Shown here: one piece after another, positions 12,057-58,099 of the stretch | Numbering within the stretch: the first letter of the stretch is position 1 | Layout: each line of letters opens with the position of its first letter | DNA from: a bacterium BMS3Bbin13 | GTDB taxonomy: Bacteria > Pseudomonadota > Gammaproteobacteria > 21-64-14 | Assembly (NCBI GenBank): GCA_002897735.1 | Contig: BDTW01000021.1 | Coordinates: forward strand, 70,813-134,812 | Reading direction: 5' to 3' | DNA: 64,000 nt | Made by a program: the position numbers and the translations under genes | The notes under the pieces: generated by a model | What the model saw: only the letters and a program-made list of their open reading frames with translations | Database searches by the model: none | What the model was told of the DNA's origin: nothing

Positions 12057-12268
12057 ACCCCGCTTGCTTGCAAAAACCAAACCACCCACCGGGAACCCGC
12101 GCCTCCCGCCCGGGCCTGTTTCAGGATCACATGTTAAATCCGTTGGTTATGAAAGGGATAGCAGGCCATCCGACGACGCGCGGGGTCCTGGCTGTCCTCG
12201 GGACGCTGGCCTCTATTCTGCACCAATCCGGTGCGCGTCGTGTGGCCGACCCGCACGCCGTCGGATGA

Positions 12269-13047: not shown

Positions 13048-14454
13048 CTAGAGGCTGTAGTAGAGGTCGAACTCGACCGGATGGGTGGTCATCCGCAGGC
13101 GGGTGATCTCCTGCATCTTGAGGTCGATATAGCCGTCGATCAAGTCGTCCGTGAACACCCCGCCCGCCTTGAGGAACTTGCGATCCACGTCAAGGGCGTC
13201 GAGTGCCTGATCCAACGCATGGCAGACCGTCGGAATCTTCTTCTCCTCCTCGGGCGGCAGGTCGTAGAGGTCCTTGTCCATGGATTCGCCGGGGTGGATC
13301 TTGTTCTGAATACCGTCGAGTCCGGCCATCATCATCGCGGTAAAGGCGAAGTACGTGTTGCCACAGGCGTCCGGGAATCGCACTTCGATACGACGCGCCT
13401 TGGGGTTGGACACGGACGGGATGCGGACCGCGGCCGAGCGGTTGCTCGCCGAGTAGGCCAACAGGATCGGCGCCTCGAAACCGGGCACCAGCCGCTTGTA
13501 GCTGTTGGTGCTGGCGTTGGTGAAGGCGTTGAGCGCGCGCGCGTGCTTGAAGATGCCGCCGATGTAGTACAGGGCCAGCTCCGAGAGGCCGCCGTACTTG
13601 TTGCCCATGAACAGGTTTTTGCCCTGCTTGGCGAGCGACTGATGCACGTGCATCCCGTTGCCGTTGTCTCCGACGAGGGGCTTGGGCATGAACGTCGCGG
13701 TCTTGCCGTAGGCGTGGGCGACATTCTGCACCACGTATTTCATGATCAACATTTCATCGGCCTTGCGCACCAGGGAGTTGAAGGCGGTACCGATCTCGCA
13801 CTGTCCCGCGGTCGCCACCTCGTGGTGGTGCATCTCCACCTCGATGCCCATCTCCTCGAGCGCCAGGCACATGGCCGAACGGATATCCTGCAGGGAATCC
13901 ACCGGCGGCACCGGGAAATAGCCGCCCTTGATCGACGGCCGGTGGCCGATGTTGCCGTCCTCGAACACACGTTCGGAGTTCCACGACGCCTCGTCCGAAT
14001 CGACCTTGTAGAAAGCACCGCTCATGGTGGTGCCCCAACGCACGTCGTCGAGGATGAAGAATTCCGGTTCCGGCCCGAAGTAGGCGGTGTCGGCGATCTT
14101 GGTGGACTTGAGATAGGCCTCGGCACGCTTGGCGATCGTGCGCGGATCGCGTTCGTAGCCCTGCATGGTGCTCGGCTCGAGGATGTCGCAACGCAGGAGC
14201 AGCGTAGTCTCGTCGGTGAACGGATCCATCACCGCACTCCCGGCATCCGGCATCAGCACCATGTCGGACTCGTTGATGCACTTCCAGCCGGCGATGCTCG
14301 AACCATCGAACATCTTGCCGTCCTTGAAGAACCCGGCGTCGATCTGGCTCGCGGGCAGGGACACGTGCTGCTCCTTTCCGCGCGTGTCGACGAAGCGCAG
14401 ATCCACGAACTTCACTTCTTTGTCTTTCATCAACTTCAGAACGTTTGCGGACAT
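13048..14454 (-). CDS. glnA: Glutamine synthetase type I
   Basis: Canonical GSI throughout (…[17 protein letters not shown]…, ATP-binding and adenylylation-site regions); 468 aa. Confidence 0.95.
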
Positions 14455-14619
14455 GAAAGGGCCTCCTGGGCAGTGACTCGGGCGGCGGAACGGGCGGCAG
14501 CGCCGAGGATTTCCGATACCGTGGTCGATATCGATAGTGATATCGAGTTCGAGGTGCCCCGGAGCCGCTCAGGGCGGTCACCGTGGTTCCTCGGTTCCCA
14601 CGGCCACCGGAACCGATTA

Positions 14620-14780
14620 CAGGGATGGAGCACGATCCGTGCCACGAACACAACCTCCTGTTATTAAAAGTCTTTCATAAAAATCCCTGAGGGGCGGGGC
14701 CGGAAAACGCACCATGACGGTGCGCCGCGGTCATGCGCGCACTCATTTTATGCGGATGCACCCTCGAAGTGCACCCGGAC
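14620..14780 (-). promoter_or_regulatory. glnAp2-like control region: sigma54 -24/-12 promoter, an AT-rich tract and two NtrC-type enhancer half-site pairs
   Basis: On the minus strand, TGGCACGgatcGTGCT at about 14627-14645. An AT-rich tract lies at 14661-14690. CGCACCAtgaCGGTGCG is at 14706-14722 and TGCACCCtcgAAGTGCA at 14757-14773, both close to the NtrC consensus TGCACCA-N3-TGGTGCA. Confidence 0.6.
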
Positions 14781-15933
14781 TTCACCCACGCCGTCGAGCG
14801 CCTTGGCGCGGCGCGCCAGCGCCCGTGCCAGCGCCTGTGCGGCCGGCAGGTCGGCGACGACGTCCAACGGCAGGACCACCTCCACGTCCACCCGGCCCTC
14901 CAGATAGTGCAGGGTGACGCGCTCGATGCGCCGCGCCTCGTCGAAGCCGCGCCATTGCCGGTGCAATCGATCGAGCATCTCGTCGCGCAGCGGCAGGTCG
15001 CGCGAGCACATCGTGGCCTCGTCGTCCTCGGGATCGATGTGCACGAGGACGTCGCTGATCTCATCGAACCGGCGCACCAGCCGCCTGCGGACGGTTTCAC
15101 TGATCTGGTGCCCCTCGGAGACGCTCACCTTCGGATCCACCAGGATGTGTACGTCCACCAGCGCGTCGCGCCCCATGCGCCGAGTGCGCAACAGGTGCAG
15201 GGCCTGCACGCCGTCGACGGCGAGGATCTCCCGCTTCACCGCCGCCACCTGCTCCCGATCGAGACCGGTGTCGACCAGCTCACGCAGGCTCTGCCAGCTC
15301 AGATCCCAGCCGATTTTGGCGATCATCAGCGCGACGATCACGGCCGCGACCGCATCCAGGTACGGCAACCCGGCCATGGTACCGCCGATCCCGATAGCGA
15401 CCACCACCGAGGAGATGGCGTCGCTGCGATGGTGCCAGGCGTTGGCCTGCAGCAGGTTGGAGCGCGCGCGGCGCGCGGCGTGCATCGTGTAGTGGTAGAG
15501 ACCCTCCTTGGAGACGATCGACAGCACGGCCACGACCAGGGTGAGCAAATCCGGATGCAACAGCTCCCGCGGCACGAACAGCCGGCTCCCGGTATCGTAG
15601 CCGATGCCCGCGCCCACGGCGATCAGCAACACGCCGAGCCCGACCGTGACCGCGGTCTCGACGCGCGCATGCCCATACGGGTGGTCCTCGTCGGCATCCC
15701 GGCTCCCGTGCCGCGCGGCGACCAGCACCATGGCGTCCGAGGCGAGGTCGGAGAGGGAGTGGACGCCGTCGACGACCAGCGCCTGCGATTGGCCGATGAT
15801 GCCGAACAGGATCTTGGCGCCGGCCAGCACGACGTTGATCACCGCGCCGACGATGGTCACGCGGAACACGGCCCGGTAGCGGGCGCCGGCGTCCAGAGAC
15901 TCCGTGTGATGGTGGGCGATGCCGTTGGTCATG
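14748..15933 (-). CDS. Cation diffusion facilitator (CDF) family metal efflux transporter
   Basis: A His-rich N-terminus (MTNGIAHHH), six TM helices and a C-terminal CDF cytoplasmic domain (LHLLRTRRMGRDALVDVHILVDP). The start is the ATG at 15931-15933. Confidence 0.85.
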
Positions 15934-15961
15934 GGTTCGGGGATGACGGGCACGACGACGG

Positions 15962-16213
15962 CTACCGGTGCCCCTCGTCCGAGACCACCTCGATGGTGAT
16001 GGCGATCTCGCCGGCCGTCTCCCGGATCCCGATCACCCGGTGGCCGTACATCCGGCACCAGGCCGGGATATCGTGGCGCACCCCGGGGTCGGTGCAACGG
16101 ATCTCGAGCCGCTCGCCGGGCGCCAGGTCCCGCACCCGGTCCTGAGTACGGATCACGGGCAGCGGGCAAAGCAGGCGCCGGACATCGAGCACTGAACGGT
16201 TCACAGATACCAC
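15962..16213 (-). CDS. TusA-like sulfur carrier protein (SirA/YedF/YeeD family)
   Basis: LDVRRLLCPLPV carries the CPxP motif with the catalytic Cys; about 83 aa. It overlaps the 3' end of the upstream PP-loop gene by 13 bp. Confidence 0.8.
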   Translation of the reverse strand: MVSVNRSVLDVRRLLCPLPVIRTQDRVRDLAPGERLEIRCTDPGVRHDIPAWCRMYGHRVIGIRETAGEIAITIEVVSDEGHR

Positions 16214-17244
16214 TCCGCGGGGATCTCCTCGGCGGGCAGCGGTGCGACCTCGAGGATGCGCGGCTCCCCCCCGCCGCGCGCCACGGCGACCCGCACCCGC
16301 GGCGACCCGCGTCCCTGGCTAAACCGAGCCGTCAGCCGCGCCGCCAGATCGAGGTCCCCGTCCGAGACCTCGCCGTCCACCAGCACCAACGGTCCCGGGT
16401 GGCTCACCGTGGTGAGGTTCGTGAACTGCTTACGGTAACCCTCGAGGAAGCGGTTCTCCCCCTCCTCGCGCGCGACGATCAGCTTGAAGTGCGGCCGGGG
16501 CCGCAGGTGGCGCCCGACCTTGAGGAGCATGATGTCGTCCAACTCGTAGTCGCGCGCCGCGCGCGCACGCCACAGGTCGGCGAGCTTCGCCGCGTAGCGC
16601 GGGTCGGTCAGGAAACAACACCCCCCGGCCGGCTGGGCGTAGTCGCGGAACCCGTAGTGCTCCGCCAGGGCCATCTGCGGTTTGCGGGTACGCCCGCTGA
16701 AGTCGAGCAGCCGCTCGCGCTCGACCCAGCCCTCGCGTTCGGGCAGGGTGGGTGGCAGGAGCTTGGCGCTCAACGGACGCAACAGCCGGTCGCCGGCGCC
16801 CGACTCGCGCGCGATCACCGGCATCGTATCCCGGCGCTGCGACATGGGCCGCTGGCCGATGACCTCGCCGGTGATCACGAAATCGAACCCGTGCTCCTGC
16901 ATCCACGCATAGGCGCGCCCGACCATGAACCCCTTGCAGTCCAGACAGGGATTCAGGTTATGACCGTACCCGTGTCGGGGATTGAGCACCACGTCCTTGT
17001 AATCGGTGGAGACATCGATGAGGTGCAGCCGGATGCCCAGTTGCTCCGCCACCCACAAGGCGTTGTTGCGTTTCGGGCGGTCGCGATCGCGGCTGCGGAT
17101 GGCGTGCGTGTGCCCCTCCACGCAAAAACCGGTGAAGAAATTGACCCCCTCCACGCGGATCCCCTGATCGAGGATCACGCGCGCGGCGAGCAACGAGTCC
17201 AGTCCGCCGGAGATGAGGGCCACCGCCGTGCGCGGCTCCGCCAT
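16201..17244 (-). CDS. PP-loop ATP pyrophosphatase, divergent MnmA/TrmU-like thiouridylase-family protein
   Basis: N-terminal PP-loop (AVALISGGLDSLLAA), NPCLDCKGFM (compare MnmA NPxxxCN-KF) and a second Cys motif GGCCFLTD (compare MnmA GICFIGE). The start is the ATG at 17242-17244; the 48-codon upstream extension is not credible. Confidence 0.6.
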   Translation of the reverse strand: MAEPRTAVALISGGLDSLLAARVILDQGIRVEGVNFFTGFCVEGHTHAIRSRDRDRPKRNNALWVAEQLGIRLHLIDVSTDYKDVVLNPRHGYGHNLNPCLDCKGFMVGRAYAWMQEHGFDFVITGEVIGQRPMSQRRDTMPVIARESGAGDRLLRPLSAKLLPPTLPEREGWVERERLLDFSGRTRKPQMALAEHYGFRDYAQPAGGCCFLTDPRYAAKLADLWRARAARDYELDDIMLLKVGRHLRPRPHFKLIVAREEGENRFLEGYRKQFTNLTTVSHPGPLVLVDGEVSDGDLDLAARLTARFSQGRGSPRVRVAVARGGGEPRILEVAPLPAEEIPAEWYL

Positions 17245-17467
17245 GGAGATACCCCTATAAAATCCACAGGAAAACGCCGCCGGGCGGCCGAGAAGGAAAG
17301 AGGGAGTGTAGAAGATCCACCGGGTCCGGGCCAGCACTGCACTGCACGCGCCGCTTACGGTGCGAGAGCGGATTCTACGGGGACGGTTCAAAAGAAGGGG
17401 GGAGCGTCACCACCCGGTCATGGGCGGATACCCCCCGGCGTTTGCCGTACAGGAATACGGAGACGGA

Positions 17468-18043
17468 TTAGTGTACCGGTCCGCCCACCGGGGCGGGCGG
17501 ACCCGGGACGGCGCCGCCCGCACTGCTCAGGCGCTCGAAGGCGCGACGGCTGCCGGTCTCGTGCCAGAGTTCGGCGGCACGCAGCAGGTCCACGCCCGCG
17601 CCGCCATTGACCTCCCGGGTCGCCTGCAGCACATCCATCAGGGAGACGAAGGTCGCGGCGAGGCGCTCGAACAGGGCATGCAGCCCGCGCGTGCGCGTGG
17701 CCGCGAGTTCGCAATAGGCGCTGCGTCCGAGGCCCACGAAATAGCCCGGAGAGACCAAGCGCCGTTCGCCGCGTCCGGGGAACAATCCCGAGAACAACAG
17801 ACACTGATCGCCGACGTCGCGCAACCGCTCGGCGCGGCGGGTACCGTACGAGTCGAGGGCACGCAGGTAGTCCAGAGCCATGACCCGCGCGGCGAGCTGC
17901 GGCTCGCCCGTGAAGCGCATCAGCAGGAAGACCAGATAGCTCTCCACGTCTTCCCCGAGATCGCAGCGGCATACGCGTTGCGCCTCCTCGACGAGGGCGT
18001 GCCACTGCGCGGCGGCGCTCGGTTGCAGGACCAATCCGGACAT
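17468..18043 (-). CDS. Hypothetical protein, first gene of the apparent PP-loop/TusA/CDF operon
   Basis: A 191-codon ORF in the strand and position of an operon leader gene. No recognisable motifs. Confidence 0.45.
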   Translation of the reverse strand: MSGLVLQPSAAAQWHALVEEAQRVCRCDLGEDVESYLVFLLMRFTGEPQLAARVMALDYLRALDSYGTRRAERLRDVGDQCLLFSGLFPGRGERRLVSPGYFVGLGRSAYCELAATRTRGLHALFERLAATFVSLMDVLQATREVNGGAGVDLLRAAELWHETGSRRAFERLSSAGGAVPGPPAPVGGPVH

Positions 18044-18210
18044 TCGTTCCGTCCCTCCCCTATGGTTGATCGACCATCGGGAAGGGGTTCTTTAGCCCTG
18101 ATCGGCACCCGCTCGACGACCTTCGTTCGCGCCCGTCGGCACGCTATACTGGTTCGTCGTTTCCGACCGACGCCCCCAGGGGCCCCAAAGGAATCTCCGG
18201 GAAAGCGCCC

Positions 18211-19140
18211 GTGGCCGAACCGCACCCACCCTCACCGCCCGACACCTTCCAGGACCTGATCCTGGCGCTGCAGCACTACTGGGCCGCGCGCGGCTGCGTG
18301 CTGCTGCAGCCCTACGACCTCGAAGTCGGGGCGGGGACCTTCCATCCGGCGACGTTTCTGCGCGCGGTAGGACCCGAGCCATGGAACGCCGCCTACGTGC
18401 AGCCCTCACGCCGCCCCACGGACGGGCGCTACGGCGAGAATCCGAACCGGTTGCAGCACTACTATCAATTCCAGGTGGTACTCAAACCCTCACCGCCCGA
18501 TATCCAGGATCTGTACCTCGACTCGCTGCGCACACTGGGCCTGGACCCGCTGGTGCACGACATCCGCTTCGTGGAAGACAACTGGGAGTCCCCGACCCTG
18601 GGCGCATGGGGGCTCGGCTGGGAGGTGTGGCTCAACGGCATGGAGATCACGCAGTTCACGTATTTCCAGCAGGTGGGCGGCCTGGACTGCACCCCGGTCA
18701 TGGGGGAGATCACCTACGGACTGGAACGTATCGCCATGTACCTGCAGCGCGTCGACAGCGTCTTCGACCTGACATGGACTACCGGCGCGCAGGGGCGGAT
18801 CTCCTACGGTGACGTGTTCCACCAGAACGAGGTGGAGATGTCCGCTTACAACTTCGAGCACGCCGACGTGGATGCCCTGTTCCGCCGATTCGACACCTGC
18901 GAGGCGGAGAGCCGGCGGTTGGCGGAGCTGGATCTGCCCTTGCCGGCCTACGAGATGGCCCTCAAGGCCTCGCACACCTTCAATCTGCTGGATGCACGCA
19001 ATGCGATCTCCGTGACCGAGCGCCGGCGTTACCTGCTGCGGGTGCGGGCCCTGGCACGCGCCGTGGCGGAGCGTTACCTGGCACGGCGCGCGGCACTGGG
19101 CTTCCCGCTGCAGCATCACCCGGCGGGCGATGCGCCATGA
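18211..19140 (+). CDS. glyQ: Glycine--tRNA ligase alpha subunit
   Basis: [34 protein letters not shown]… is a canonical GlyQ. Confidence 0.95.
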
Positions 19141-23021: not shown

Positions 23022-25562
<2,541 letters not shown>

Positions 25563-25595
25563 TCACGTGGAACCTTCCGCGGAATGCGAAGGCGG

Positions 25596-26696
25596 CTACA
25601 GCCGCATCGGCATGACGACGTAACGATATGGGCTGTTGCCCTGCCCCTGAACCAGTGCGCTGCTGTTTCCGTCCGTCATCTCCAGCTCGATCCCCTCCGA
25701 TGGGATCGCCGCGAGGGCATCCAAGAGATAAGTGACATTGAACCCGATTTCCAGGTCTCCGCCCCGATATTGCACCTCCAGCTCCTCCTCGGCCTCCTCC
25801 TGCTCCGGATTGTGCGCCTGCATCTTGAGGATGCCGTTTTCCAGCAGGAGTCGTACGCCGCGATATTTCTCGTTGGACAGAATCGAAGTGCGCGTAAGTG
25901 CCTGGCGAAGGGACTCACGGTCCGCCTTCACGATCTTGTCCCCACCACGCGGGATTACACGTTGGTACTCGGGGAAGCGCCCGTCGATCAACTTTGACGT
26001 AAACCACAGGTCCGGCAGCCGGACCTGGATGTGATTGCTGCCGATGGCGATCTCCACCGGGCTATCACGATCCTCCAGCATCCGAAGGAGTTCCTGGATC
26101 CCTTTTCGCGGCACGATTACTTGGACCCGCTGTGGAACTTTCACGGGGACCGGAAGTTCCCCCAGTGCCAGACGATGACCGTCCGTCGCGACGGCACGAA
26201 GCAGCCCATCCTCGACCTCCAACAGCAGGCCGTTCAGGTAATAACGCACATCCTGCAGCGCCATTGCGAAATGGGTGCGGGTGATCAGTTCACGCAATTC
26301 GTGCTGCGGCATGGTGAAGCTTACTGCATCCTGGCCAACCGCCACGTTTGGGAACCCTTCCGCAGGCAATGTGGCCAAGGTAAAACGGCTCCGACCTGAA
26401 CGCACGGTGGCCCGTTCTCCGCTGACGGCGATCTGCAACTCCGCCTGCTCGGGTAACGTTCGGCAGATATCCAGAAACTTGCGCGCCGGCAGGGTGATTT
26501 CTCCGGGGTCCGTAACGGCTATGGCCAAGCGGGCGACGAGCTGCACCTCGAGGTCGGTCGCAGTCAACGTGATTCCGTTGTCATCCCCCTTGAGCAGCAC
26601 ATTCGACAGAATCGGCAGGGTTTGACGGCGCTCGACGACCCCACTGACGACTTGGAGTGGTTTCAGTAGCTGTTCGCGCTGGATAGTGAATTGCAT
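25596..26696 (-). CDS. dnaN: DNA polymerase III beta sliding clamp
   Basis: MQFTIQREQLLKPLQVVSGVVERRQTLPILSNVLL…; 366 aa. Confidence 0.95.
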   Translation of the reverse strand: MQFTIQREQLLKPLQVVSGVVERRQTLPILSNVLLKGDDNGITLTATDLEVQLVARLAIAVTDPGEITLPARKFLDICRTLPEQAELQIAVSGERATVRSGRSRFTLATLPAEGFPNVAVGQDAVSFTMPQHELRELITRTHFAMALQDVRYYLNGLLLEVEDGLLRAVATDGHRLALGELPVPVKVPQRVQVIVPRKGIQELLRMLEDRDSPVEIAIGSNHIQVRLPDLWFTSKLIDGRFPEYQRVIPRGGDKIVKADRESLRQALTRTSILSNEKYRGVRLLLENGILKMQAHNPEQEEAEEELEVQYRGGDLEIGFNVTYLLDALAAIPSEGIELEMTDGNSSALVQGQGNSPYRYVVMPMRL

Positions 26697-26921
26697 CGTG
26701 TCATCCCAAAGAGCCGATGAATCATTATAGTTAAGTTAAATATTAAAGATTATAGTAATAATAGAGCACGTCCTCATCGGTGGACTTGTGGTTTTTCTCT
26801 TTCAATTACAACTCATTACATGAACACAAACCCATTGGATGACCTGGGGACATCACGTGGAGTGGGTGTGGATAAATCAGACGCTCCGAAATCGTCGGAG
26901 GTTATCCACAGGTGTTCCCCA
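26697..26921. promoter_or_regulatory. Candidate oriC / DNA unwinding element: AT-rich island with two inverted perfect DnaA boxes between dnaA and dnaN
   Basis: About 120 bp at roughly 70% AT (tcattatagttaagttaaatattaaagattatagtaataataga) in a 68% GC genome. TGTGGATAA lies at 26867-26875 and TTATCCACA at 26902-26910. Confidence 0.55.
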
Positions 26922-28256
26922 TTATGTGCTCAGGGTTCTATACAGGTTTTGATAGTCTTCCTTGATCCGGTCATCCAGCTCGGTCAGCTCCCGCACCTTT
27001 CGACAGGCATGCAATACCGTGGTATGATCGCGCCCGCCGAAGCTGTCACCGATTTCCGGCAGGCTGTGGTTCGTCAACTCCTTTGCCAACGCCATGGCCA
27101 GCTGGCGGGGGCGGGTGATGGAGCGGCTGCGACGCTTGGACAGCAGGTCGGACACCCGAATCTTATAATACTCCGCTACGGTCTTCTGGATGTTCTCCAT
27201 GGAGACCAGTTTGTTCTGGAGGGCAATCAGGTCCCGGAGGGCCTCCTTGGCAAGATCCACGGTGATCGGGCAGCCGATGAACCGTGCGTTGGCCACGACA
27301 CGGCGCAACGCGCCTTCCAGCTCCCGCACATTGGAACGAACGCGTTTGGCGACGAAGAAGGCCACCTCGTTGGGGAGCTGCACCTTGAACTGTTCCGCTT
27401 TGCTGATCAGGATTGCGACGCGTGTTTCGAGTTCCGGTGGATCAATGGCGACGGTCAGTCCCCAACCGAAGCGGGATTTGAGCCGTTCTTCCAACCCCTT
27501 GACCTCTTTCGGGTAGCGGTCGCAGGTAACGATGACCTGCTGCTGGTTCTCGAGCAGGGCATTGAATGTGTGGAAGAATTCCTCCTGGGAACGCTCCTTG
27601 CCGGCGAAAAATTGAATATCGTCGATGAGCAGGGCGTCGACCGATCGATAAAAACGTTTGAACTCGTTGATCGTGTTATGTTGCAGGGCCTTGATCATGT
27701 CGCCGACAAAACGCTCGGAGTGAAGATAGATGACCCGCGCCGAGGGATTGGTCAGCAGCATCTGATTGCCGACCGCCTGCATGAGATGAGTCTTGCCGAG
27801 ACCGACGCCCCCATAGATGAACAGGGGGTTGTAAGCGCAACCCGGGTTGTCGGCAACCTGCCGGGATGCGGCCCGCGCGAGCTGGTTGGACTTGCCTTCG
27901 ACGAAGCTGTCGAAGACGAACTGCGGGCTGAGAAAGCTGCTGCGCACCACTTCCTGCCCTGCTTGAAAGCGCGGGCCGGCGGCGGGTCGGGCCGCCACAG
28001 GTGTGGGGCGTTGGGTACTGCCGATTTCGAGCAGCACGCGCGCGGAGCGCCCGTGCGTCTGATACGAGACCACCTCGGTGATTTGTCGGTAATAGTGTTC
28101 GCGTACCCAGTCGAGGACGAAGCGGTTTGGTGCGAGCAGGTGCAGGGCATCGTCTTCTTCAACGGCATGAAGCGGACGAATCCAGGTGTTGAACTGCTGC
28201 TCGGACAACTCGCCTTCGAGACGGTGAAGACAACTTTGCCACATTGAACCGACCAC
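26922..28256 (-). CDS. dnaA: Chromosomal replication initiator protein DnaA
   Basis: [25 protein letters not shown]…, the AAA+ Walker A ([10 protein letters not shown]) and a C-terminal DnaA-box-binding domain. Confidence 0.95.
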
Positions 28257-55707: not shown

Positions 55708-55924
55708 GCCTGCGGGAAGCGATCGCCGCGGGGGCGGAGCCCCCGTCCGGCGGACGCGCCGCCGGTACCGTGCGACGTGGTCCGCAGCCCCCTTCTGCGG
55801 GGACCCCGGGGGTTTGCGAAGGCTCCCCGCCGATGGATCCTCGCGCCCCGGTGTCGTGTAGCGCCTTCCTTGACACCCCCCGCACCCGCCGATAGAGTCC
55901 CGGCTGCACGCTTCAGGTGGCCCG

Positions 55925-56085
55925 AGGGCGTCTCGCCCGAGGGATGAAACGGGAAGCCGGTGCGCACCGGGAACCATCCCGGCGGCCATTCCGGCGCTGC
56001 CCCCGCAACGGTAGGCGAGTCAAGGTCCGGCATCATGCCACTGTGCAACCGCACGGGAAGGCGCCGGATCGGACTACGGTCCACT
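55925..56085 (+). ncRNA. Cobalamin (adenosylcobalamin) riboswitch in the btuB leader
   Basis: GGGAAGCCGGTGCGCACCGGGAA…GCTGCCCCCGCAACGGTAGGCG…CATGCCACTGTGCAACCGCACGGGAAGGC contains the conserved GGTG…CCCGCAACGGTA core and the B12 box (GCCACTG). It lies 150-300 bp upstream of a TonB-dependent receptor. Confidence 0.8.
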
Positions 56086-56233
56086 CGCGAGCCCGGAGAC
56101 CGGCCTGTAGCGTCCTGGTCGGTGCTGCGAGGGGCGGCACGGCGGACCCGCTCGCCCGTCCGCGCGTCATCGGTCCCTTCGCACCCGGTTCATCAACCGC
56201 ACACGCGGGTGCGCGTGGCGAAGGGAGCGTTCC

Positions 56234-58099
56234 ATGAGAATAACCCACCGGGCCGGCGCGGCCCTTCTCCTGCTGGGCTGCGCCGTCGGCGCGGCCCGTG
56301 CCGACGAGTTGATCACCTCACCGATCGTCGTCACGGCCACCCGGACCGCGGAGACCGCGGACCAGACCCTGTCCTCGGTCACGGTCATCACGCGCACGGA
56401 CATCCGACGCAGCGGCGCGGTGACGCTGCCGCAACTCCTTCGGCAGGTGAACGGGTTGGACGTCGCCAGCAGCGGCCCGTTGGGGAAACAGACTTCGGTA
56501 TTCCTGCGCGGAACCGACTCCAACGACGTCCTGGTCATGATCGACGGCGTGCGCATCGGCTCGGTAACCAGCGGCGGGGTGTCCTGGGAACTGCTGCCGC
56601 TCTCCGAGATCCAGCGCATCGAGATCGTGCGCGGGCCCCATTCCAGCCTCTACGGTTCCAGTGCGGTCGGCGGCGTGATCCAGATCTTCACGCGCAAGGG
56701 GCGCGGCCCGTTGCGCGCCGGGGCCGATGTCACCTATGGAAGTCACGAGACCTACCAGGCCTTCGGCGGGGTCTCGGGCTCCGTCGGACGCGGCTGGATC
56801 AACCTGCGCGGCGGCGGTCTGGGTACCGAGGGGATCAACGTGAGCCGGCCGGTCCTGGGTTTCAACGAGCCGGACCGGGACGGGTACTACAACGATTCGT
56901 TCACCGCGGGCGCCGGTTACCATTGGGACAACGGCACCGCGGTGCGCGTCAATGCGCTGCGTGCCACCGGTACGACCCGGTACGACGACACTCCGCCCTC
57001 GTCGTTCTACACGTCCCCGAATGCCGACCGGTTTCTCCAGGAGGTGGTCGGCGGACTCGTCCGGCTGCAGCCGACGGAGGCTTGGACCGTGCGCCTGCGC
57101 GCCGGTCGCAGCCTGGACGACCGCACCAGCTTCCGCGAGGGCTCGGCCGTCGCGCCCTCGCGCTTCGACAGCGAGCGCATCACCGCGAGCTGGCAGAACG
57201 AGTTCGCCGTCGGCCGGCATCAGTCGATCACCGCGGGGATCGACTACCTGGACGACCGTGTCGACAGTACCACGCACTATGATCGGACCTCGCGCTACGA
57301 TGTGGGGGCGTTCGCCCAGTATCAGCTTCGCCTCGGGCGCAACGACCTCCTCGGCTCGCTACGTCTCGATCACGACGAGCAGTTCGGCAACCACACCACC
57401 GGCAGCATCGCCTGGGGATACCGGTTGACCCGCGCCCTGCACGCCACCGCCTCCTATGGCACCGCGTTCCGCGCGCCCACCTTCAACGATCTGTACTATC
57501 CCGGCTACAGCAACCCGAACCTGCGTCCGGAGACCTCGGACACCGTCGAGGTGGGGCTGCGCGGCAATCATCCGTGGGGCCGCTGGCACGTGGACGCCTA
57601 TCGCACCGGCGTCCGTGACCTGATTCAGTTCGTGTATCCCGCTACGCAGAACATCGGGCGCACAACGATCCGGGGCGTCGAGGCCGGTGTGGATACGCGC
57701 ATCCGCGGATGGAAGGTGCAACTGGGGCTGGCCTTGACACGCCCGCACGATGACATCAAAGGCACGACCCTGATCCGGCGCACCGAGCGCTCGTTCAAGG
57801 TCGCGCTGGACCGCGGGTTCGGCCGTGCGCACGTGCACGTGGACTGGGCCGTCGAGGGGCGCCGGTTCGACACCTTCTTCAATCCGGTGACGTTCCAATC
57901 CGAGCGCGTGCGCCTGTCCGGATACGGCCTGGTCGACGCGAGCCTCGAATACGCCCTGACCCCGAATTGGAGCCTGCACGCCGCGGTGGACAACCTGTTC
58001 GACCGGGGGTACCAAACCATGTTCGGTTACAATCAGCTCGGTCGCACCGTGTTCGTCGGAGTCCGCTACCGCGGCACCCCGTGGGGCGGGGGCGTGTGA
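56234..58099 (+). CDS. btuB: TonB-dependent outer-membrane vitamin B12 receptor BtuB
   Basis: A signal peptide, the TonB box (DELITSPIVVTATR), a plug and a 22-strand barrel ending in an aromatic C-terminus. It is preceded by a cobalamin riboswitch. Confidence 0.88.
   Translation: MRITHRAGAALLLLGCAVGAARADELITSPIVVTATRTAETADQTLSSVTVITRTDIRRSGAVTLPQLLRQVNGLDVASSGPLGKQTSVFLRGTDSNDVLVMIDGVRIGSVTSGGVSWELLPLSEIQRIEIVRGPHSSLYGSSAVGGVIQIFTRKGRGPLRAGADVTYGSHETYQAFGGVSGSVGRGWINLRGGGLGTEGINVSRPVLGFNEPDRDGYYNDSFTAGAGYHWDNGTAVRVNALRATGTTRYDDTPPSSFYTSPNADRFLQEVVGGLVRLQPTEAWTVRLRAGRSLDDRTSFREGSAVAPSRFDSERITASWQNEFAVGRHQSITAGIDYLDDRVDSTTHYDRTSRYDVGAFAQYQLRLGRNDLLGSLRLDHDEQFGNHTTGSIAWGYRLTRALHATASYGTAFRAPTFNDLYYPGYSNPNLRPETSDTVEVGLRGNHPWGRWHVDAYRTGVRDLIQFVYPATQNIGRTTIRGVEAGVDTRIRGWKVQLGLALTRPHDDIKGTTLIRRTERSFKVALDRGFGRAHVHVDWAVEGRRFDTFFNPVTFQSERVRLSGYGLVDASLEYALTPNWSLHAAVDNLFDRGYQTMFGYNQLGRTVFVGVRYRGTPWGGGV

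Follow-up and report, generated by a model that had tools for sequence, protein, structure and literature searches.

A predicted RNA-thiolation module of a ThiI-like NFACT-R enzyme and its own TusA, next to a lineage-specific metal exporter in a gammaproteobacterium

The window, meaning the whole 64-kb stretch of DNA that was analysed, contains four open reading frames on the minus strand between 14748 and 18043 (Table 1). They encode a CDF exporter, a TusA protein, a PP-loop protein and a hypothetical protein, as an earlier sequence-only reading had stated. Tight packing had been proposed for all four genes and is found for the PP-loop, TusA and CDF genes, but not for the hypothetical gene, which lies 223 nt (17245-17467) from the PP-loop start. 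The PP-loop gene and tusA, first said to overlap by 13 nt, more likely share 4 nt (GTGA), with tusA starting at GTG 16204 and a GGAG 8 nt upstream; 4 nt is also the mode across 77 related genomes. The spacing between tusA and the CDF gene measures 29 nt (15933-15961) rather than 28. The placement of the unit against the glnA enhancer holds because NtrC-like sites and a sigma-54 -24/-12 element sit upstream of glnA. Over the whole window, counts of NtrC-like and sigma-54 patterns are not above chance. The positions ahead of glnA are coherent, with the -24/-12 element preceded by NtrC-like sites at distances of about 80 and 130 bp. A promoter scan of 14300-18400 matched no sigma-70 consensus sites. 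The scan of the same interval for terminator-like hairpins yielded three against 1.4 expected by chance, and none of this near-chance total separates the PP-loop gene from tusA or tusA from the CDF gene. An Rfam search of the whole window gave no match inside the locus.

Table 1. Genes and control features at the locus, in window coordinates.
Feature	Position	Strand	Basis or remark
glnA	13048-14454		adjoins the unit beyond its control region
glnA control region, bounding the unit	14629..14773	-	pattern searches
sigma-54 -24/-12 element	14629-14644		pattern search
NtrC-like palindrome	14708-14724		pattern search
NtrC-like palindrome, inside the last CDF codons (CDF 3' end)	14757-14773		pattern search
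CDF divalent-cation exporter, 394 aa	14748..15932	-	Pfam Cation_efflux and ZT_dimer
TusA-family sulfur carrier, 80 aa from GTG 16204 (alternative GTG 16213 gives 83 aa)	15962..16204	-	Pfam TusA
ThiI-like PP-loop ATP pyrophosphatase with C-terminal NFACT-R_2 RNA-binding domain, 347 aa	16201..17244	-	motifs and profiles
Intergenic region upstream of the PP-loop gene, 223 nt	17245..17467	-	sequence read directly
Conserved hypothetical protein, 191 aa, all-helical	17468..18043	-	ORF and homologues

The PP-loop protein carries the motifs SGGLDS, NPCLDCKGF and GGCCF exactly as first described, but the domain that defines its family had been overlooked. Residues 244-346 match the NFACT-R_2 profile (E 2.7e-34), which Pfam curates as PF18297. 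Among 246 diverse members of the family, the PP-loop S12-G-G-L-D-S17 is at least 90% conserved, as are each of G184, R185, R187 and Q190 in the motif G184-R-x-R-x-x-Q190. C100 and C103, which form a CxxC, are conserved at 100% and C209 at 99%. The NFACT-R (DUF814) domain with its conserved arginines takes the place of a THUMP domain, for which Pfam and NCBIfam profiles gave no match in the enzyme, and the predicted structure model has a ThiI-type PP-loop catalytic fold. The protein is distinct from housekeeping MnmA, as had been suggested, scoring 38.6 bits against NF001138 (cut-off 284) and 33.6 against TIGR00420 (cut-off 236.95). The label MnmA-like nevertheless pointed to the wrong family as closest kin. 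ThiI is the best structural counterpart of the model, and NFACT-R stands where MnmA has its middle and C-terminal domains. The score against the ThiI model TIGR00342 is 33.4 bits (cut-off 264.5). An orthodox identity as MnmA or ThiI is ruled out by the curated cut-offs and the absent domains. Sequence searches of solved structures found no close relative of the enzyme, with the HUP and NFACT-R domains matching separately only. The gene is the one SGGxDS open reading frame in the 64-kb window, the extent over which mnmA and thiI were looked for.

The three conserved cysteines point to a probable iron-sulfur enzyme. [4Fe-4S] tRNA sulfurtransferases (TtuI class 2, TtuA, NcsA and C-type MnmA) share a CXXC + C motif, in the definition of PMC9825150 and PMC7025502, and the enzyme has this motif as C100/C103/C209. 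By analogy, these residues are most likely the ligands of a putative [4Fe-4S] cluster. The model falls below pLDDT 50 at residues 92-96 and 206-215, the putative cluster-binding loops.

The sulfur carrier is a clear member of the TusA family (PF01206, E 3.9e-21, 75.1 bits against a cut-off of 28.6), with Cys13 as acceptor cysteine in the CPxP-type motif LLCPLP. It stays below the NCBIfam equivalog cut-off for E. coli TusA (47.4 against 78). The sequence-only reading had paired the PP-loop protein with its own TusA, and comparison across genomes bears this out. In 77 of 80 related genomes tusA is the next gene downstream of the PP-loop gene, most often overlapping it by 4 nt, and the two proteins are fused in homologue P0162. 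The pairing is regarded as dedicated because of this overlap, adjacency and fusion. The core of the locus is probably a two-gene RNA-thiolation module, in which the ThiI-like PP-loop enzyme is translationally coupled to a TusA of its own.

The arrangement had been thought unrecognised, but a ThiI-like PP-loop protein with DUF814/NFACT-R and a TusA neighbor was already described with a mechanism in 2014. Burroughs & Aravind 2014 (PMC4075521) predicted a 4-thiouridylation pathway for ThiI+DUF814 (NFACT-R) and TusA, and listed 'Some gamma-proteobacteria' among the carriers. Mutual exclusivity with canonical THUMP-ThiI in genomes is the main phyletic argument for this family. The locus shares with that system the ThiI-like PP-loop, the C-terminal NFACT-R and the lack of THUMP or rhodanese domains. 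The CxxC, the internal cysteine, the GRxRxxQ motif and the conserved NFACT-R arginines likewise agree, as does an immediately adjacent tusA with its conserved cysteine, and the core shows no difference. Three points can be added to the 2014 description. The family is very large, with 909 clusters at 50% identity (E <= 1e-30). The three conserved cysteines are probably readable as [4Fe-4S] ligands, and a CDF gene is inserted between tusA and glnA in one gammaproteobacterial lineage. An experimental parallel for the cysteines comes from archaeal ThiI/TtuI of Methanococcus maripaludis and Pyrococcus furiosus, where a catalytic [4Fe-4S] cluster bound by CXXC + C is needed for s4U8 (PMC9825150). 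The enzyme here resembles these proteins in its ThiI-type PP-loop domain, its CXXC + C motif and the lack of rhodanese. The archaeal enzymes bind tRNA by an N-terminal THUMP domain and were assayed with sulfide as donor (PMC9825150), whereas the enzyme here ends in NFACT-R and is paired with its own TusA. The insert between the CxxC and the third cysteine is also longer, at 106 residues compared to 80.

We consider it likely that the locus belongs to a predicted bacterial pathway in which a ThiI-like enzyme with an RNA-binding domain and its own TusA transfer sulfur onto RNA, probably tRNA. We infer where the sulfur comes from, that an Fe-S cluster takes part, which RNA is the substrate and which position is modified, as follows. 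An IscS-type cysteine desulfurase encoded elsewhere would load a persulfide onto Cys13 of TusA. TusA would hand the sulfur to the active site of the enzyme, where C100/C103/C209 most likely hold a [4Fe-4S] cluster, and the free iron of this putative cluster would bind the sulfur as hydrosulfide. The NFACT-R domain may then position the RNA substrate, most likely a tRNA. The PP-loop would adenylate an oxygen of the target uridine, with O4 of U8 as the most likely site, and the sulfur would displace AMP to give 4-thiouridine. The predicted substrate and modified position rest on homology and on the 2014 prediction, and tRNA s4U8 formation by this enzyme is a prediction only. In the literature searched, the 2014 prediction was all that was found on the NFACT-R/ThiI class, with no experimental study.

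The CDF protein scores 230.7 bits against TIGR01297 (cut-off 82.35) and below the cut-off of every equivalog model, namely FieF, MamB, MamM, MntE and ZitB. Its nearest solved structure is Shewanella YiiP 5vrf (E 9e-27), and alignment to this structure places transport site A, the metal site of TM2 and TM5, at H58/D62/H167/D171. Judged by its sequence, the protein is a predicted divalent-metal exporter with an HD-HD site. It has the six-TM Cation_efflux and ZT_dimer architecture of YiiP and of E. coli FieF (2qfi), as well as the TM5 H-x-x-x-D of site A. It differs from YiiP in having HD-HD instead of DD-HD at site A, and in about 90 extra C-terminal residues. This extension, residues 305-394, is conserved and matches no family; tested as a duplicated ZT_dimer it aligned in register, though weakly (BLASTP E 0.31, hhalign probability 5%). 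The description of the exporter as His-rich was overstated, with 19 histidines in 394 residues (4.8%) and a single HHH run at residues 7-9.

Whether the exporter takes part in thiolation is the main question raised by the gene order. The earlier reading preferred a metal-linked thiolation with the CDF protein as functional partner of the TusA/PP-loop pair. In that view the exporter might protect Fe-S and persulfide chemistry from thiophilic metals (Zn, Cd, Co) or excess Fe, or it might couple metal status to RNA thiolation. The CDF gene follows tusA on the same strand with no predicted terminator between them. It is found in 49 of 71 genomes of one gammaproteobacterial lineage, and wherever present it follows tusA closely, with a median gap of about 11 nt. 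Such constant packing is compatible with genuine co-expression and would allow a functional link; within the lineage the gene is probably co-transcribed with the module. The CDF proteins, about 390 aa long, also make up an orthologue group of their own in which the extra C-terminal segment is conserved, and an Fe-S cluster is probably needed by the enzyme. The wider distribution argues against such a partnership. The CDF gene is missing in 22 of the 71 clade genomes, 16 of which have glnA directly after tusA, and it is absent at all eight loci examined in distant phyla. TusA was the sole neighborhood link conserved across phyla in the 2014 survey (PMC4075521). Neither a fusion nor a shared motif ties the exporter to the module. 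The unrelated housekeeping neighbors glnA (50 of 58) and glyQ (44 of 58) are conserved equally or better, as expected from inherited synteny near the origin. The proposal of a new system including the exporter is thus not upheld, and a metal-linked role appears unlikely. The same low standing applies to the broader suggestion that the exporter, with its roughly 90 extra C-terminal residues, has a functional link to the TusA/Fe-S thiolase pair and perhaps protects or tunes metal-sensitive RNA thiolation in metal-rich sulfide habitats, and/or that the NFACT-R enzyme thiolates an RNA target other than tRNA U8. Gene order inherited within a conserved, origin-proximal block (gyrB...glyS-glyQ / hyp-PPloop-tusA-(CDF)-glnA-ntrBC) best accounts for the association of the CDF gene with the module, which makes the exporter a lineage-specific neighbor.

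The upstream gene was treated in the sequence-only reading as a member of the operon. Its product has no Pfam or NCBIfam match even at E <= 10. It has about 1600 homologues and, among the matches listed, every one named by its source is called 'hypothetical'. The AF2 model reaches a pLDDT of 60.9. In a true four-gene operon this protein would be a fourth member of the thiolation module, perhaps as its adaptor or regulator. The gene lies directly upstream on the same strand, and 31 of 72 genomes have it at the upstream position. In Inmirania it has stayed beside the PP-loop gene although a rearrangement has put rpoD in the upstream place of glyQS. Nevertheless, the upstream position lacks the gene in the other 41 genomes. 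The gap of 223 nt here compares with at least 93 nt in all relatives (93-1457 nt, median 189). In one related locus (L096), the hypothetical gene sits beside glyQS and the PP-loop module is absent, and the protein itself offers no recognizable domain and a low-confidence structure model. A four-gene operon is thus quite improbable, and the hypothetical gene is probably a separate, loosely linked neighbor outside the thiolation module. The module probably has its own predicted promoter within 17245-17467. This region contains a TAGAAT hexamer at 17372-17377 as well as a weak GC hairpin followed by a T-run (17276-17288), a 5-bp hairpin within chance expectation. Among ten loci, most regions upstream of the PP-loop gene have a TAGAAT- or TATAAT-like hexamer. 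These regions could not be aligned and share only the recurring hexamer, and we therefore claim no conserved regulatory element.

It is very unlikely that the enzyme is a divergent paralogue of MnmA forming 2-thiouridine at position 34 of tRNA via TusA, as in E. coli. The N-terminal domain does find its best matches in MnmA (Pfam tRNA_Me_trans, E 1.2e-9; PDB MnmA 9hln, E 1.9e-12 with the family profile), and in sequence profiles it scores slightly higher against MnmA than against ThiI, which leaves s2U formation or another target conceivable. In E. coli, the carrier relay that feeds MnmA also starts with TusA. The enzyme shares with E. coli MnmA and the C-type Fe-S MnmA of Thermus a PP-loop ATP pyrophosphatase domain and the NPxxxC...C layout, alongside a TusA persulfide carrier, and its CxxC...C pattern agrees with the C-type proteins (PMC7025502). 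However, MnmA models and structures align to residues 8-130 only, which is the HUP domain, and the enzyme is structurally nearer ThiI. The central and C-terminal domains of MnmA bind the anticodon arm. Both domains are missing from the enzyme, and the locus has no TusBCD or TusE genes of the E. coli relay. Sulfur insertion into a small-molecule cofactor instead of RNA, in a LarE-like reaction or in thiamin or molybdopterin pathways, is the least credible reading given that all members carry NFACT-R, a domain related to nucleic-acid-binding domains of RqcH, NEMF and CCDC25, that the thiamin role of ThiI requires a rhodanese domain absent here, and that cofactor-biosynthesis genes are not conserved near the locus in the neighborhoods of relatives, including distant phyla.

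The NFACT-R enzymes form a large family, with 909 clusters at 50% identity (E <= 1e-30) in many phyla. Identity across the 80 gammaproteobacterial genomes compared is 68-85%. Public annotations of the family include 'tRNA (5-methylaminomethyl-2-thiouridylate)-methyltransferase', 'MnmA/TrmU' and 'thiamine biosynthesis protein', names that are misleading. The locus itself is an ordinary, well-conserved member of the family described computationally in 2014, and the CDF neighborhood is a lineage-specific curiosity at most. The value of the locus lies in what it represents, a large and highly conserved family known by prediction in the literature searched. Whether a further class of U8 sulfurase exists was left open in PMC9825150. 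Reading CxxC...C as a putative [4Fe-4S] site, with TusA as the likely donor, would provide a concrete model for such a third class.

At its core this locus adds another ThiI-like/NFACT-R enzyme with TusA to a type of module already known from computational prediction. An orthodox MnmA or ThiI is ruled out because the 347-aa PP-loop protein scores 33-39 bits against the curated NCBIfam models, which have cut-offs of 237-284. N-terminal Pfam matches are weak (MnmA HUP domain, E 1.2e-9; ThiI, E 5.6e-8), and the C-terminus carries a strong NFACT-R_2 domain (PF18297, residues 244-346, E 2.7e-34). The AlphaFold model (pLDDT 80.8) was compared with solved structures, among which Foldseek and profile searches concordantly found no close relative. 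The domain scores and the structural comparison identify the protein as a ThiI-like PP-loop enzyme with NFACT-R in place of THUMP. The sequence-only reading had called it MnmA-like, which holds for the generic HUP domain and fails for the protein as a whole. The motifs it listed (SGGLDS, NPCLDCKGF and GGCCF) are present exactly. No second PP-loop ORF was found within the 64-kb window.

Exactly this family was defined as 'ThiI+DUF814' by Burroughs and Aravind (RNA Biol 2014, PMC4075521), who gave as its motifs CxxC, one internal cysteine, a GRxRxxQ stretch within an enlarged loop, and a pair of conserved arginines in NFACT-R. TusA was the sole gene neighbour conserved across phyla, and was fused to the ThiI+DUF814 protein in Francisella. 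IscS/IscU adjoined the gene in Aquificae, and the family was almost mutually exclusive with THUMP-ThiI. The proposed role was an alternative tRNA 4-thiouridylation pathway (PMC4075521). The protein studied here has every sequence feature listed there, and among 246 family members with only 35-67% identity to it these features vary little or not at all. The observed gene group is largely real, but what had been taken for an unrecognised arrangement and a candidate novel system was already described computationally. The family is large, comprising 909 clusters at 50% identity (E <= 1e-30), and strongly conserved, with 68-85% identity in Ectothiorhodospiraceae, Chromatiales, Acidiferrobacterales, Sedimenticola, Methylococcales and other groups. 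Public names vary and are misleading, including MnmA/TrmU, 'thiamine biosynthesis protein' and QueC.

The association with TusA extends across lineages. TusA lies directly 3' of the PP-loop gene in 77 of 80 species-level genomes, most commonly with a 4-nt overlap, and follows it in five of eight loci of distant lineages (Acidobacteriota, Hydrogenothermaceae, a Helarchaeota-labelled MAG and others). In one homologue, P0162, carrier and enzyme form a single TusA-PP-loop-NFACT-R protein. Adjacency, overlap and fusion make it sound to propose, as the sequence-only reading did, a thiolation enzyme that is separate from MnmA and depends on a TusA of its own. The TusA in the window retains the CPxP cysteine (Cys13) and belongs to the TusA family without being the E. 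coli TusA equivalog (Pfam, NCBIfam). Its best supported start is the GTG at 16204, with GGAG 8 nt upstream and agreement among relatives, and the overlap is therefore 4 nt (GTGA) instead of the 13 nt first reported.

Residues C100, C103 and C209 of the PP-loop protein are 99-100% conserved among the 246 family members. The CXXC + C motif is shared with archaeal ThiI/TtuI (PMC9825150) and C-type MnmA (PMC7025502), where it holds a catalytic [4Fe-4S] cluster. For both, a free iron of the cluster was proposed to carry the sulfur attacking the adenylated uridine (PMC9825150, PMC7025502). Distant homologues lie amid genes for Fe-S assembly. A Hydrogenothermaceae MAG locus (L088, 3236-6761) has the order IscS, NifU_N, enzyme, TusA, 73-aa ORF, NifU. 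At the Helarchaeota-labelled MAG locus (L093, 2363-5035), a Mrp/ParA-type ATPase with FeS_assembly_P and a small FeS_assembly_P protein are encoded just upstream of the enzyme. These assembly genes fit an Fe-S-dependent enzyme. From the conserved motif, the clusters in ThiI/TtuI and C-type MnmA and the flanking Fe-S genes, we infer an Fe-S-dependent mechanism, in which the TusA persulfide would be the physiological sulfur donor for thiolation. The putative cluster loops are the low-confidence parts of the AlphaFold model.

The CDF exporter is a lineage-specific neighbour of this module. CDF membership is genuine (TIGR01297, 230.7 bits), with scores under every NCBIfam equivalog cut-off, and among solved structures Shewanella YiiP comes nearest (E 9e-27). 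Alignment predicts an HD-HD transport site (H58, D62, H167, D171), unlike the DD-HD site of YiiP, with YiiP residues numbered as in the published structures. Although first described as His-rich, the protein is not notably so, having 19 His in 394 residues and a single HHH run. In this clade, orthologues from at least 50 species, ~390 aa long, share a conserved C-terminal extension of ~90 aa past ZT_dimer, for which Pfam gave no family match. The extension aligns in register, weakly, with the same protein's ZT_dimer (BLASTP E 0.31, hhalign probability 5%).

The CDF gene follows TusA in 49 of 71 evaluable genomes, tightly packed in every one, and is probably co-transcribed in this lineage. TusA is followed directly by glnA in 16 of the 71 and by another gene in 6. 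The exporter may be functionally tied to the thiolation module, for which proximity is the one argument. However, it occurs at none of the eight distant-lineage loci, and functionally unrelated neighbours are kept as well or better (glnA in 50/58 genomes, glyQ in 44/58), which argues against a place in a new thiolation system. The gyrB-dnaN-dnaA cluster at 23022-28256 puts the block in a conserved origin-proximal core. Inherited gene order is the simplest reading of why the CDF gene stays beside TusA. A second, unrelated, lineage-specific conserved neighbourhood is found at three Acidobacteria-type loci (L087, L089, L092). Genes for an HNH-domain protein of ~200 aa and a Peptidase_S58 precede the PP-loop/NFACT-R-TusA pair there, and a convergent FixC/FixX-like (ETF-QO) pair follows it. 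The module thus gains different stable neighbours in different clades.

Coordinates of features at the locus and in the origin-region cluster
Feature	Position	Strand	Remarks
Third NtrC-like site	12219-12235		upstream of ntrB-like gene
glnA	13048-14454	-	next after CDF gene, same strand
Sigma-54 element	14629-14644		pattern search
NtrC-like palindrome	14708-14724		pattern search
NtrC-like palindrome	14757-14773		inside last codons of CDF gene; pattern search
CDF transporter, 394 aa	14748-15932	-	ORF
CDF C-terminal extension	14748-15020	-	residues 305-394; conserved motifs LP.R and LHYL.G
TusA-family protein	15962-16204	-	ORF; alternative start 16213 possible
PP-loop protein, 347 aa	16201-17244	-	ORF
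Hypothetical protein, 191 aa	17468-18043	-	ORF
glyQ-glyS	from 18211		divergent, upstream of hypothetical gene
gyrB	23022-25502	-	origin-region cluster
dnaN	25596-26696	-	origin-region cluster
dnaA	26922-28256	-	origin-region cluster

All four ORFs at 14748-18043 (minus strand) have the high third-position GC usual for coding sequence in the window. Transcription units were delimited from gene spacing only, and the tight packing described for four genes applies to three. As proposed, the CDF gene runs directly into the glnA control region with its NtrC-like palindromes and sigma-54 element. With one palindrome within the CDF end and no terminator predicted between CDF and glnA, transcription of the upstream unit may continue into glnA.

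The hypothetical gene, once counted as an operon member, stands apart. It lies 223 nt from the PP-loop gene, and its family is found upstream of that gene in 31 of 72 genomes (gaps 93-1457 nt) and is usually divergent from glyQS. In Inmirania it remains with the module, with rpoD in place of glyQS; at another locus, L096, it remains with glyQS and the module is absent. We regard it as a syntenic neighbour, presumably transcribed as a unit of its own. The ~1600 homologues are gammaproteobacterial; those listed with a source name are all 'hypothetical', and most are unnamed. No Pfam domain was found in the protein or its homologues, invariant motifs being ESYLVF..MRF, LR.VGD.CLL.SG..P and W..TGS. 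The predicted structure is all-helical at low confidence (pLDDT 60.9).

Elsewhere in the window, recF is absent between dnaN and gyrB, which are only ~93 nt apart. The gyrB-dnaN-dnaA stretch has 54-62% GC compared to 68-70% in the flanks, which for genes of core replication is a marked local dip. On the plus strand, Rfam places a cobalamin riboswitch (RF00174, 95.9 bits, E 1e-22) at 55898-56122, upstream of a 621-aa ORF (56234-58099).

RNA thiolation by the TusA-fed PP-loop enzyme is likely, and s4U8 is modestly favoured as the specific product. The ThiI-like/NFACT-R enzyme probably makes tRNA s4U8 and probably depends on an Fe-S cluster. A literature search found no experimental study of the ThiI+DUF814 class. 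The value of the locus lies in representing a large, highly conserved family apparently without any experimental test.
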